This document shows positions 38,144 through 41,970 of a DNA stretch of 64,000 nt, piece by piece; position 1 is the stretch's first letter, and every line of letters starts with the position of its first letter. The notes beneath the pieces are model-generated. The model was not told where the DNA came from, did not search any database, and saw nothing but the letters and a program-made list of their open reading frames with translations. Origin of the DNA: an uncultured Bdellovibrionales bacterium (lineage in GTDB: Bacteria; Patescibacteriota; Minisyncoccia; Moranbacterales; UBA1568); the NCBI GenBank assembly GCA_964436855.1, contig CAYTED010000001.1, positions 135,059-199,058 on the forward strand, written 5' to 3'. A program made the position numbers and the translations under genes.

Positions 38144-40333
38144 TTACTGATTACTTTCTCCCAATAATTCCTTAAACTGATCTTCATCCAACAAAGTTAC
38201 CCCTAACTCCCGAGCCTTCTCGAATTTACTCCCGGGATTTTCCCCCGCGACGACAAAATCCGTCTTCCGACTCACCGACGAAGAAACCGCCCCCCCGTTC
38301 TTCCTGATCATATCCTTCGCTTCGTCCCGTGTAAAGGATGAGAGCTCGCCCGTCAGCACAAACGTTTTCCCGGAGAATCGTCCTTCCGTGCGTAATTCTC
38401 CTTCGGAAAAAAACACTCGCACCCCGAGTTTGTCCATTCGTTGAAGCGTTTCCAATCGCTTCGGATCCTTGAACCACTCCGAGAGACTCTCCGCGCTCTT
38501 TTCTCCGATCCCCTTGATACTCAACCAATCATCGAGTCGGAGTGAAGAAAAAATATTTCCAATATCTCGAGGGCTTTCGGTATTCCGATAACCGGTTATC
38601 GATTTCCAGTGATGCGCGATCAAAATCGCACTCTCCTCTCCCACGTGCCGTATTCCAAGCCCAAACAAAAATTTATCAAACCGAACGCGCTTCGACCGAT
38701 CGATCGCCTCAATCAATTTCTCCGCCTTTTTATCTGCAAACCGTTCAAGTGGAATCAGGTCTCCTTCGGTCAGTTCGAAAATATCCGCAAAATCAGACAC
38801 GAGACCTTCATTCATAAGCTGCTCGACGATTTTCTCGCCAAGCCCTTCGATATCGAATCCTTTTCGTCCGACAAAATGAATGATATTTTCTCGCTCAACC
38901 GCAAAACAGTTCGGATTCGTGCAATACATCGCCACGCTCTCTTTTCCTCCAGCATCTCCTCCTCCCCTTTCTAAAGGAGGGGTAGGGAGAAATTTTGTAT
39001 TTCGTATTTTTTGTTGACTGTTTTTTGTTGACTGTTTACTGACTTCGCTTCCACAAATCGGACACCGCTCCGGAAACGCAAACTCCTTCTCCTTTCCCGT
39101 TCGAAGCGCCAAGACAACCGACAAAACTTCCGGAATAATATCTCCCGCTTTACGTACGATCACGGTATCGCCAATTCGCACATCGAGCCGCTTGATTTCA
39201 TCCGCATTGTGAAGCGTCGCCCGAGACACCGTCGATCCGGCGATACGAACCGGCGCAAGATGCGCAACCGGCGTAAGCGCTCCCGTTCTCCCGACCTGCA
39301 CTGCGATATCAAGCACCGTTGTCGTTACCTCTTCCGCCGGAAACTTATACGCCACGCCGAACCGCGGCGACTTCCCCGTATACCCAAGCGCTTCCTGTGT
39401 CGCGCGGTCATTGATTTTAATCACAATCCCATCGAGCCCATACGAAAGATCGTGCCGTTTTTCTGTCCACTTCTGATAGTACGCCTCCACTTCCTCGATA
39501 TTTCTACAAAGTGTAGAGTGCGGATTCACTTTAAACCCCAACCTCCTTAATAATTCCAACTCATCTGTCTGCGTCTGAATGCTTAATGCTTGATTCTTGC
39601 TTCTGAATTCTTGCATTTCGTCAATATCATACACAAACGAATCGAGTTTCCGACTCGCCGTAATTCTGGAATCAAGCTGTCGAATCGATCCCGCCGCCGC
39701 ATTGCGCGGATTCGCGAAAAGTGGCTCTTTTTTTTGCGCGCGTTCACTATTGATCCGACCAAGCTCTTCTTCCGAAAGCCAAATCTCCCCGATAGCAGTC
39801 AATGTAACCGGTTCATTCAAAAGAAGCGGGACGCTCTGAATCGTCTTCACATTCTGCGTAACATTTTCTCCGATTTCACCATCGCCGCGCGTCGCCGCCC
39901 GAACAAGCTTTCCATTTTCATACGTAAGAATCACCTTGAGTCCGTCGATCTTGAGCTCGCAAACAAATGATATTTCCTCTTCCCCTTTCAAAGGGGATGT
40001 TGAGAGGGGTTTGGATTTCTGCAACAATCGTTTATTCCTCGCCTCCCACTCCTGCAGCTCATTAAAATCAAACACGTCATCAAATGACCACTGCCGATGA
40101 TGGTGCTTCACTTTTTCAAACTTCTCGAGCGGTTCCGCTCCCACTCGCTGTGTCGGACTTTCCGGTACGATCAATTTCGGATATTCGCGTTCAAGAGACT
40201 CAAGCTCCCGAAAAAGCGAGTCATACGCTTCGTCCGAGATTTCCGGCCGATCAAGCACGTGGTACGCGTATCGATGCCGATCGATTTCCGCCCGAAGTTT
40301 CCCGATTCTTTGTTGTGCTTCTTGTTTGTTCAT
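38144..40333 (-). CDS. ligA: NAD-dependent DNA ligase LigA with two in-frame insertions
   Basis: KIDG adenylation motif, OB fold, Cys4 zinc finger, HhH motifs and a C-terminal BRCT. Start preferred at [13 protein letters not shown] (40333), not the extended ORF start at 40450. Confidence 0.9.
38954..38987. repeat. GC-rich palindromic repeat, copy a (inside the ligA zinc-finger coding region)
   Basis: CTCCTCCTCCCCTTTCTAAAGGAGGGGTAGGGAG, encoding [14 protein letters not shown] within a roughly 29-aa insertion between the Cys pairs of the LigA zinc finger. Confidence 0.6.
39976..40010. repeat. GC-rich palindromic repeat, copy b (inside ligA, just N-terminal to the KxDG motif)
   Basis: CCTCTTCCCCTTTCAAAGGGGATGTTGAGAGGGGT. 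A perfect CCCCTTT-c-AAAGGGG core, encoding [12 protein letters not shown]. Confidence 0.6.
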
Positions 40334-40528
40334 AAGTTTGGTGTGCGGTCGGACCAACCAAAAAAGCGCATCCTTGCGCTTCATTATCCCGCATTCCACC
40401 CTCTCTATCAAGTATTGAAAGCTCGTCTGCTTCTGCCAAATGGAGTTCAAAATGAGTTTTCTGTTTGCATTGTGAATGCGTGATTTCTCATCTTGATTCT
40501 TGGTTCATAAGGTATGACTCCCTCGCAC

Positions 40529-41113
40529 TCAATTCACAATTCCCGATTCCTTGTAATCACGCAAGGAAACCGTCGTCTGTATTCGGACATTTCTCGTGGA
40601 AGTCGAACTCTCCTTCACGACAAACACGATAGTCACCCTCCCAACCGCCGCCGGACCCGGTGTCGGGCTCGCCGAAGGAATGACGCTAAAAACCGGAACG
40701 ACATCGCCGGTAGTAACTCTCGTATACGCACCCAAATTCAATACCCCGGTGCAATTATCGCGAAGCGTCTGTGGCGGAACGGCGGCCGGAGGAACTACCG
40801 ATGCCTTTTCAAGAAAATTTCCTCCCGAATTTTTCTTATATTCGATACACTTGTTTTGAGAATAATCAAAAAAACGAACGCGGGTCGTACCTGAACTGAT
40901 AATCGTGCTCGTCCGAAGCTGCTTCGCGATATCGTTTATCGTAAATTGCGCGTTTTCCGTATCTCGTTCGATTCGCTTATTCTCGCGATATGAAAAAATC
41001 CCGGAGCTAAATGTCGACGATGCCGCCATCATCATAAGCGAAAAAACGAAAATAGAAACCATCACCTCGATCATCGAAAGACCGGAAAAAAGTTTTTGTG
41101 AAATTCGTTTCAT
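40529..41113 (-). CDS. Prepilin-type minor pilin/pseudopilin
   Basis: N-terminal KLFSG-LSMIEVMVSIFVF: G at -1, E at +5, then a hydrophobic helix. Confidence 0.6.
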   Translation of the reverse strand: MKRISQKLFSGLSMIEVMVSIFVFSLMMMAASSTFSSGIFSYRENKRIERDTENAQFTINDIAKQLRTSTIISSGTTRVRFFDYSQNKCIEYKKNSGGNFLEKASVVPPAAVPPQTLRDNCTGVLNLGAYTRVTTGDVVPVFSVIPSASPTPGPAAVGRVTIVFVVKESSTSTRNVRIQTTVSLRDYKESGIVN

Positions 41114-41119
41114 ACTCGA

Positions 41120-41788
41120 TTATCTCCACGATTCAAGAACCGCCCGCGAATAGACACATTTGTTACCGGCAGTACACCACGACGCAATCTGTGCGATATT
41201 CGGATCATTGCCGCTATACGAGCCTGGCGCGCCCGGAAACACTCCACTCCCGCCCCACCAGACAATACTCACCACCCTAAAGGCATCGTCCGATTCATCA
41301 AGCGGCGTCCCTTTATCATCCCGCTCAAGATAAATATCTCTTCCAAAGTGCGTTTGCACCGACCGACTCGGACTATAATCAAACTTATAATACCCGTTTA
41401 CAAGGTCAAGTGAAAATTTTCGCAACTCATTATTTTTAGCCGCTCCAAAACAATTTCGCCCCGCCCCGCCCGTAGTATCAAAAGCAGTATCCAAATAATC
41501 AAGATTACAGTTGTCCTTATTGGCAGTCAGAAAATTATTAAAAGCGATAGTTCCCGAAGCGAGATTGTTATCCCTTATATTTCGAACAATCTCCACGCCT
41601 TCCTGCGCCAATTCGGCTGCGACAATCCGATCCCGATCAAATGCCGATTCCCGATAATTCGACGCAAAAAGCGACACGATCGCCGTCAGCCCGACCGATA
41701 TTACAAACGCGGAAATAATCACCTCTCCAAACGAAAATCCCCGAACGGTTTTTTTTCTCAAAAAAAGTTTTCTCTGATGTTCCTTCAT
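41120..41788 (-). CDS. Prepilin-type minor pilin/pseudopilin (start at the internal Met)
   Basis: MKEHQRKLFLRKKTVRG-FSFGEVIISAFVISVGL prepilin signal with E at +5. The listed ORF extends upstream over a repeat element. Confidence 0.55.
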   Translation of the reverse strand: MKEHQRKLFLRKKTVRGFSFGEVIISAFVISVGLTAIVSLFASNYRESAFDRDRIVAAELAQEGVEIVRNIRDNNLASGTIAFNNFLTANKDNCNLDYLDTAFDTTGGAGRNCFGAAKNNELRKFSLDLVNGYYKFDYSPSRSVQTHFGRDIYLERDDKGTPLDESDDAFRVVSIVWWGGSGVFPGAPGSYSGNDPNIAQIASWCTAGNKCVYSRAVLESWR

Positions 41789-41807
41789 CGTATTTTTATT
41801 TTCTTTC

Positions 41808-41970
41808 TTCCTGCTCCCCTGCCCGAGGGGAACTCCCGAGCCTTCGAGAGTGAGGGGTGGGAGCATCTTGAGCGATGCGACCGCTGTATACTCGCTCCGT
41901 TTCATCGGTATTCCTCCTCCCCTTGGAAAGCCTGCCTGCCGGTAGACAGGGGGAGGATCAAGGAGGGGTT
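41808..41970. repeat. Two further copies (c, d) of the GC-rich palindromic repeat family in the pilin 5' region
   Basis: c: CTCCCCTGCCCGAGGGGA...GAGTGAGGGGTGGGAGC. d: CCTCCTCCCCTTGGAAAG...GGGGGAGGATCAAGGAGGGGTT. Both share the CCTCYTCCCCTT ... GAGGGGT ends with the ligA copies. Confidence 0.5.

Follow-up and report, generated by a model that had tools for sequence, protein, structure and literature searches.

The stretch of DNA considered here, hereafter the window, comprises 64,000 nucleotides (64 kb) of contig CAYTED010000001.1 (assembly GCA_964436855.1) from a bacterium of the Candidatus Moranbacteria lineage (candidate phyla radiation, CPR/Patescibacteria); in and next to ligA, its gene for the NAD-dependent DNA ligase LigA, lie four copies, a to d, of a short G/C-rich repeat that is the subject of this report (Table 1). 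One database protein is 100% identical to the LigA of the window and, most of the next 119 matches for which a source is named are annotated as Moranbacteria. Nearly all genes of the window lie on the (-) strand and the GC skew of the + strand is uniformly negative; read along (-), the local order is type IV pilus genes (PilC, pilins, prepilin peptidase), a PaaX/Cas2-like open reading frame (ORF) together with a PEP-CTERM ORF, three pilin-like genes, ligA, gatC and gatA. The synteny of the type IV pilus cluster upstream of ligA is kept in all relatives examined. The four copies, all at the positions given in an initial annotation of this DNA, share one orientation and fall within 3 kb, a clustering whose probability by chance can be roughly estimated at ~4x(3/64)^3, or ~4e-4.

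Table 1. Repeat copies and associated features in the window and, where an L number is given, in other loci (L001-L007 and L156 label the ligA loci of relatives).
Feature	Position	Strand	Sequence or remark
Copy a	38954..38992	(-)	+ strand: CTCCTCCTCCCCTTT / ctaa / AAAGGAGGGG / ta / GGGAGAAA
Copy b	39976..40012	(-)	+ strand: CCTCTTCCCCTTT / c / AAAGGGGA / tgttgag / AGGGGTTT
Copy c	41810..41863	(-)	+ strand: CTCCCCT / gcccg / AGGGGA / 21-nt loop, imperfect inner hairpin / GAGGGGTGGGAG
Copy d	41912..41970	(-)	+ strand: TCCTCCTCCCCTT / 24-nt loop, imperfect hairpin / GGGGGAGGA / tca / AGGAGGGGTT
ligA, NAD-dependent DNA ligase	38144..40333	(-)	probable start MNKQEAQQ; ORF open to 40450; hosts a and b
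14-nt tandem repeat TTTTTTGTTGACTG x2.2	39007..39037	(-)	inside ligA; other half of the site-2 insertion; separate from the triplex-type repeat
Pilin-like gene	41120..41788	(-)	probable start ATG 41788; 5' region holds c and d
36-nt palindrome family	L001 2135-2194; L004 ~2050-2100; L005 7210-7310 (twice in tandem)		peptide ..TAPKAERPL.. or ..APLKKRNDRS..
Copy-b-type repeat in T9SS (type IX secretion system) C-terminal sorting domains (Por_Secre_tail)	L195 9932-9964; L203 11871-11903; L271 3667-3699; also L183, L186	both orientations	low-GC metagenome contigs; SPLAKGRTEEGF or TPPSSSPLAKGR
Copy-b-type repeat in linker of Mu-type portal protein	L158, L166, L168, L174

Copies a and b lie inside ORF 38144-40450(-) with the reading frame kept, and LigA is intact: the KxDG motif, which holds the catalytic lysine, and the four zinc-finger cysteines are invariant across 45, then 120, Moranbacteria LigAs, in agreement with the earlier description of translated mini-inserts in an essential-type enzyme. 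Across the 120 orthologs LigA varies in length at three sites (site 1, 20-57 aa; site 2, 11-56 aa; site 3, 11-53 aa), which are located in the linker before the adenylation motif, between the Cys pairs of the zinc finger and in a loop of the adenylation domain. Copy a is translated between the zinc-finger Cys pairs (site 2), where the initial annotation had placed it; it had also been credited with most of an insertion of ~29 extra residues but covers only ~12-15 of them, the rest being contributed by a short tandem repeat. Many orthologs have peptides of the latter type (STANSQQKTKNE, NSQQSTKNE) at site 2 or 3, and this tandem repeat is thus another repeat family using the same LigA loops. 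Copy b is translated in the linker ahead of KxDG (site 1), again as annotated, but it is no clean 12-aa addition: site 1 has 28 residues in the window, while in the clade its median length is 25 and its shortest 20, and the copy thus sits in an already variable linker. Judging from the ortholog alignment, both segments are lineage-specific insertions in length-hypervariable loops, as had been predicted. In an AlphaFold2 model of LigA (mean pLDDT 83.9), all three sites are coil of low confidence, with values below 50 at site 2 (residues 454-480) and of ~61-69 at sites 1 and 3; both window inserts stand at domain boundaries.

Copies c and d had been assigned to the 5' region of a pilin gene, and they do stand upstream of a pilin-like gene, most likely in intergenic DNA: copy c lies 22-75 nt ahead of the probable start, and copy d between the pilin gene 42062-42610 and the pilin-like gene. 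They are placed outside the coding sequence because the similarity to orthologs of the pilin-like gene begins near M40 (ATG 41788) and because Shine-Dalgarno sites are scarcely used in this genome; of the 42 gene starts of the window, almost none is preceded within 25 nt by a Shine-Dalgarno-like sequence, and translation initiation in the source organism seems to proceed largely without such pairing. An alternative ORF start, ATG 41905, may lead to the translation of copy c; copy d contains a GGAGGA that might act as ribosome-binding site for this start, but it was dropped as evidence, Shine-Dalgarno sites being almost never present here.

On the + strand the copies are made of a pyrimidine block, a complementary purine block and a mirror purine block, separated by two loops; a single strand thus has the capacity to form a hairpin or, in vitro, a purine-motif intrastrand triplex. 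In copy b the arrangement is a perfect 8/8/8, with eight Watson-Crick pairs and eight mirror positions (G.G, A.A, T.A), and can be written TCCCCTTT / c / AAAGGGGA / tgttgag / AGGGGTTT; the blocks are 8/9 in copy d and stems of 6 nt in copy c, and copy a needs one bulge or mismatches. The sense (-) strand of copy a reads TTTCTCCCT-ACCCCTCCTTT-aga-AAGGGGAGGAGGA, and that of copy c opens with the canonical box CCCACCCCTCAC. Copies a and d share both termini on the sense strand (ACCCCTCCTT ... AAGGGGAGGAGGA), so that copy a looks like copy d with 35 internal nucleotides shrunk to 4. A core common to all four copies, built around a CCCCTTT/AAAGGGG palindrome, had been described; copies a, b and d are within one mismatch of this core, CCTCYTCCCCTT, but copy c has two, and the palindrome is exact in b and inexact in a, c and d.

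Searched with up to one mismatch, CCTCYTCCCCTT matches a, b, d and one unrelated site, against 0.54 matches expected, and 0/100 shuffles reach four. The composite patterns CCCCTC..GGGGA[GA] and CCCC..GGGG+GAGG match a to d only (0.4 expected; shuffle maximum 2-3), and a three-block detector, which looks on the same strand for a pyrimidine stem, its Watson-Crick purine stem and a mirror purine stem, finds in the 64 kb exactly the same four, with 0.13 expected per shuffled window. Beyond these there is no further clear copy in the window (~0.1-0.4 expected by chance), and ~4.5 kb of additional DNA of the source genome outside it yielded zero new copies. A doubtful, degenerate fifth copy in the opposite orientation, the intergenic TTCCTCCCCTGACCCCTCC..GGAAAGAAGGAAGGAAA at 62042-62098, was flagged by a relaxed detector only. 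The fragment GAGGGGTGAGAG just upstream of clpB, proposed earlier as a related copy (9290), is not supported as such; the match, at 9293, extends over only 7-12 nt and has no partner blocks, and GAGGGGT is a common string (13 occurrences in the window against 5.5 expected). A palindrome within a ClpC-like gene (57794-57823) was judged not to be an insertion. A scan for perfect hairpins (stem >=8) retrieves copy b alone among the four, the other strong palindromes of the window being unrelated, and no Rfam match was obtained for 38000-43000 at E<=1. A general repeat search of the whole window did not recover the family, because its copies are short and gapped.

Could the four copies have no common origin and be independent homopyrimidine/homopurine low-complexity tracts, alike by chance or through codon or composition bias? 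The shared strings are short, GAGGGGT alone is only ~2.4-fold over-represented, and hairpin folding, modelled with Watson-Crick pairs only, is better than in shuffles for copy b (z -2.1 and -2.7) but no better for a, c and d (z = -1.0 to +0.35). On the other side, the composite motifs occur at 10-30 times expectation and are confined to the four copies, a and d have their termini in common, the site-2 copy of the relative's locus L001 is 85% identical to copy a while the genes are 66% identical, and hundreds of near-identical relatives exist in other genomes. An origin by chance is highly improbable and close to refuted; the statistics of the composite and three-block patterns and the copies in other genomes bear out the earlier proposal of a repeat family.

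This raises the question as to which family it is. The initial annotation had described GAGGGGT as a flank and had overlooked that it is the third block of an intrastrand-triplex motif, which places the repeat with the BoxC, PIT (potential intrastrand triplex) and triplex-motif elements; these have been known since the 1990s but, to our knowledge, there is no accepted account of what they do or of how they spread. The triplex motif TMECO has the consensus CCCTCNCCC-N3-6-GGGNGAGGG-N3-GGGNGAGGG (Holder et al., NAR 2015, PMC4666352); it is the same element as the BoxC repeat described in the 1990s and as PIT, from Maher's group, was shown by circular dichroism and nuclear magnetic resonance to form a purine-motif intrastrand triplex in vitro, counts 3610 copies in 262 proteobacterial genomes and marks unstable loci, and all 23 copies of Escherichia coli K-12 are intergenic and without a link to mobile elements (PMC4666352). 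Like these elements, copies a to d consist of three blocks, one C-rich, one G-rich and complementary to the first, and one G-rich and mirroring the second (class II C-G-G). The published ITxF search allows stems of 6-15 nt and loops of 1-6 nt, TMECO itself having 3-6 nt in loop 1 and 3 nt in loop 2 (PMC4666352); copy a, with loops of ~4 and 2 nt, falls within these limits, and copy b, with 1 and 7 nt, comes near them. The stems of the window, CCTCCCC/TCCCCTTT, have diverged in sequence from the CCCTCNCCC of TMECO. The link is closer in the relatives: the reverse complement of the TMECO consensus is the "box + core" derived from their LigA inserts, all three ligA copies of L002 fit the consensus once the length of loop 2 is left free (for example CCCTCGCCCCTTTCGGGGAGAGGGTGGGGTGAGGG), and they are almost identical to the control oligonucleotide of PMC4666352 with its four G-to-C changes reverted. 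Further likenesses are the presence of multiple copies in both orientations, of inverted pairs and of derivatives by internal deletion, the association with locally variable DNA and the lack of a known linked transposase. Two differences concern the host, a CPR bacterium here against proteobacteria in the TMECO counts, and the context, two copies here being translated in an essential gene and those of E. coli K-12 being all intergenic.

The repeat type is widespread. The canonical box + core pattern, with 26 specified bases, is found at at least 120 loci of viral contigs of 36-73% GC, often as inverted pairs; some are long-loop variants in which an inner hairpin separates box from core, an arrangement shared by L002, L006 and L007. 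Copy b belongs to a sister subfamily with the consensus TCCCCTTT-N3-AAAGGGGAG-N3-GAGGGG, which occurs at 18 viral-contig loci and at least 120 metagenome loci; together with the ligA of relatives, these loci show that further copies exist beyond this genome. Among the matches in the 120 metagenome loci listed, 78/128 lie in no ORF of at least 100 aa and 15 lie deep inside long ORFs. In-frame hosts confirmed by Pfam outside ligA are a Mu-type portal, three T9SS sorting domains, an RlmN-like protein, MnmA, an AMP-binding enzyme and a ThyA-like protein; staying in frame within a tolerant segment is thus one of the general, though minor, outcomes for repeats of this type. By tblastn, ligA was absent from all 138 viral and metagenome loci tested.

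Within the Moranbacteria, the loci of the relatives show how the LigA loops change. In the closest relative (L004, 74% aa identity) an orthologous copy b of the same length is present in decayed form, its sense strand still pairing via G.U, and an unrelated 36-nt palindrome takes the place of copy a at site 2. In L156, an element of 63 nt is found 100% identical at sites 1 and 2 between unrelated flanks, an older copy occupies site 3 and an inverted pair lies in the pilin intergenic region; the two 63-nt copies have sharp boundaries, at which no terminal inverted repeats or target-site duplication were seen. In L002 the cores at the three sites are nearly identical, and a different copy is found downstream of gyrB. 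The reading frame of one and the same element differs between LigA inserts, the copies of one genome resemble each other more than those of other genomes, and some variants are private to a genome, for instance GGGGCGAGGGG to L002 and AAGGGGAGGAGGA to the window. These comparisons show the unit that is copied to be DNA and not peptide, because the frames differ, the non-coding copies c and d exist, L156 holds an exact duplicate and likeness is greatest within a genome. The loops are not reserved to the triplex-type repeat: a second, unrelated family of 36-nt palindromes (CAGCGGTCGCACCGCTCAAAAAGCGGAACGACCGCT; CAGCGGTCGCACCGCTCAAAAAGCGGAACGACCGC) is present at sites 1, 2 or 3 in several Moranbacteria, and further families are visible as peptides, often at two or three loops of one LigA. 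The sites are thus hot spots for several unrelated repeat families, a feature that the initial annotation had missed. The neighbouring genes have no comparable variation in length (GatA 480-498 aa in 4/5 loci and 444 in L156; PilC 402-403; GyrB 681-684), and among distant LigAs (34-43% identity, ~670 aa, two other Patescibacteria included) there is no clear three-block element inside ligA. The LigA of Moranbacteria is an unusually tolerant or an unusually exposed host.

One explanation of this concentration would be that the inserts are selected, functional parts of ligA or LigA, whether as diversifying surface loops (for example against phage or host factors), as structures in the DNA or mRNA (or Shine-Dalgarno-like GGAGG tracts inside the gene) causing replication or translation to pause where domains meet, or as the product of an insertion directed to ligA. 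The repeated use of three loops by unrelated families, often with one family at 2-3 loops, would agree with it, as would the domain-boundary position of both window inserts and the pairing retained in the decayed copy of L004; between L006 and L007 the site-2 elements have an identity of 85% and the genes one of 68%, one stem pair being changed on both sides in a compensatory manner, and in the Moranbacteria loci examined the triplex-type copies are mostly in ligA, with few in 120-150 kb of flanking DNA. This last estimate is, however, biased by the choice of loci, and several observations speak for dispensability. A peptide of triplex-type insert is present in only ~10% of the 120 orthologs, from which it follows that the insert can be dispensed with; the peptides are not conserved and their frames differ; the loops are modelled with low confidence; the same repeat types are intergenic and in unrelated proteins elsewhere, where ligA was not encountered; and a genome that barely uses Shine-Dalgarno pairing offers little to an internal tract of that kind. 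Selection for function is an unlikely account of the inserts.

The label of a REP/MITE-like element (repetitive extragenic palindrome; miniature inverted-repeat transposable element), given in the initial annotation, is not supported. REP sequences and their paired form, REPIN, are likewise short palindromes of imperfect symmetry that have a conserved tag at one flank, frequently come in inverted pairs and presumably move as single-stranded hairpins; they are extragenic and high in copy number, with a GTAG/CGTC tag and a RAYT gene (REP-associated tyrosine transposase) flanked by its own REPs, none of which holds for the few copies of the window. A mobilisation in trans by a RAYT of the Y1/HUH type, recognising hairpin and flanking box on the single-stranded lagging-strand template, would nonetheless suit the box-plus-hairpin layout, which resembles the tag-plus-palindrome of REPs, the single orientation of a to d on a strongly skewed replichore, and the REPIN-like inverted pairs that are common among the canonical viral-contig copies and present in L156. 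A 224-aa Y1_Tnp (RAYT-like) gene even lies directly upstream of ligA in L002 (1858-2577) and L003 (5528-6243). But this gene is flanked by a different palindrome, CTATCGAGGTTSAACCTCGATAG, and has two copies of it in frame in its own coding sequence; the triplex-type repeat is not the one that accompanies it. In the window, tblastn with the L002 Y1_Tnp found no such protein, the ten ORFs scanned around the copies (40334-49976) hold no transposase, and there is no consistent tag, GTAG being present inside copy a (GGGGTAGGGAG) and absent from b, c and d; in E. coli, TMECO is unlinked to mobile elements (PMC4666352). We regard a RAYT-driven origin as distinctly unlikely. MITEs, for their part, have terminal inverted repeats, target-site duplications and a parent insertion sequence, none of which was seen here; at a to d neither target-site duplications nor terminal inverted repeats are evident, just as at the exact duplicates of L156. 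Small non-autonomous repeats such as MITEs and intragenic ERIC/IRU do occasionally form in-frame fusions with host ORFs (PMC10969869).

The best analogy for the behaviour of the ligA copies, and for their behaviour only, is provided by the Rickettsia palindromic elements (RPE; Ogata et al. 2000, 2002), which, according to PMC10969869, are inserted in frame in unrelated and often essential genes. In both cases palindromic repeats stand in frame in a reduced genome and add segments judged compatible with the protein fold. By comparison with RPE, which measure ~100-150 bp, form families limited to Rickettsia and encode conserved peptides, the elements described here are of 35-65 bp, belong to a family that crosses phyla, are translated in more than one frame, possess a third block of the triplex type and reside in Moranbacteria.

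Taken together, copies a to d are probably members of a dispersed, G/C-rich, structure-forming repeat of the BoxC/PIT/triplex-motif kind, insertions of which survive in tolerant loops of LigA. Spread would take place at replication forks through a single strand in folded form, either because the template is switched or because the hairpin- or triplex-forming strand is inserted, and often over a short range; we propose that such replication-associated spread be favoured over a cut-and-paste transposase, because there are no target duplications and no nearby transposase, the orientation is uniform and the clustering tight. Coding copies persist only where the frame is kept and the protein tolerates an extra loop, a and b being translated into loops rich first in Pro/Ser/Leu and then in Gly/Glu/Arg. 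The inserts presumably contribute nothing to the chemistry of the ligase, and their peptides would be passengers. Once in place, the structured repeats may render the LigA loops hypervariable through slippage, internal deletion and replacement, and such repeat-promoted turnover of insertions and deletions would fit the instability of TMECO loci (PMC4666352).

Several points weigh against this interpretation. The window holds only four copies, all of them clustered, so that a genome-wide dispersal in the source organism is not established; the many dispersed intergenic copies per genome that characterise BoxC/PIT/TMECO repeats contrast with four copies in 64 kb, two of which are intragenic. The strict consensus of TMECO, and the same consensus with relaxed loops, have 0 matches in the window, and loop 2 of copy c (21 nt) and loop 1 of copy d (24 nt) are far outside the published range of 1-6 nt. 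As copies a, c and d fold no better than shuffles, the term "structure-forming" is well supported for b alone. The relatives of the window were fetched partly for their LigA motif, which inflates the apparent enrichment in ligA; the site-2 copies shared by L002, L006 and L007 may represent one old, vertically inherited insertion, and the conservation and compensatory change between those of L006 and L007 could mean selection on structure and not neutrality. Neither a target-site duplication nor an associated enzyme was seen at the copies, and we know of no mobility mechanism for BoxC and triplex-motif repeats.

A further possibility, which we hold to be improbable, shifts the emphasis from the repeat to the locus: the three LigA loops of Moranbacteria would be preferred landing or exchange sites for structured repeats at large (the triplex-type repeat, at least one other family of 36-nt palindromes and microsatellite-like units) through a process specific to the locus or the gene, and the near-identity over ~35 nt between CPR and E. 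coli elements would reflect conserved cellular machinery that copies triplex or hairpin DNA. Candidates for such a process could be local hopping from an adjacent hot spot that collects RAYT and GIY-YIG genes, insertion coupled to the processing of lagging-strand nicks, or selection that diversifies the surface of the ligase. Between the pilin genes and ligA, the window has a spacer of 195 nt (40334-40528), open in the ligA frame and without a Pfam match; a small GIY-YIG ORF lies between the pilin genes and ligA in L004 (408-701) and L005 (5581-5835).

Other repeats of the window lie outside the family. A perfect palindrome with a 15-bp stem (43804-43843) and a pair of 26-nt inverted repeats (44577-44602, 96%) bracket the PaaX_M/Cas2-like ORF 43860-44501 and may serve as operator sites or mark the two ends of a small cassette. 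A tandem duplication of 412 bp (47914-48704, 97-99% identical) gives rise to two adjacent pilin paralogs (N_methyl/ComGE-like), and three tRNA-like repeats of 64 nt, 70-80% alike and seen by the repeat finder only, form a small tRNA gene cluster at 22905-23726.

The element thus belongs with known repeats, those of the BoxC/PIT/triplex-motif kind, and in ligA it behaves in parallel to the Rickettsia palindromic elements; in the literature no report was found of BoxC-type repeats in this host lineage, of their translation in an essential gene, or of a hot spot of three loops shared with other repeat families. In-frame copies in an essential enzyme of an ultra-small CPR genome extend both the host range and the possible contexts of BoxC-type repeats. 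Duplicates of the L156 type (63 nt, 100% identical, with exact boundaries and no target duplication) constitute natural before/after sites for the copying mechanism. Finally, loops of the same P/S/L...G/E/R-rich type are present in other proteins, and repeat inserts explain the heterogeneity in length and the missed zinc-finger domain calls in the annotations of CPR LigA.

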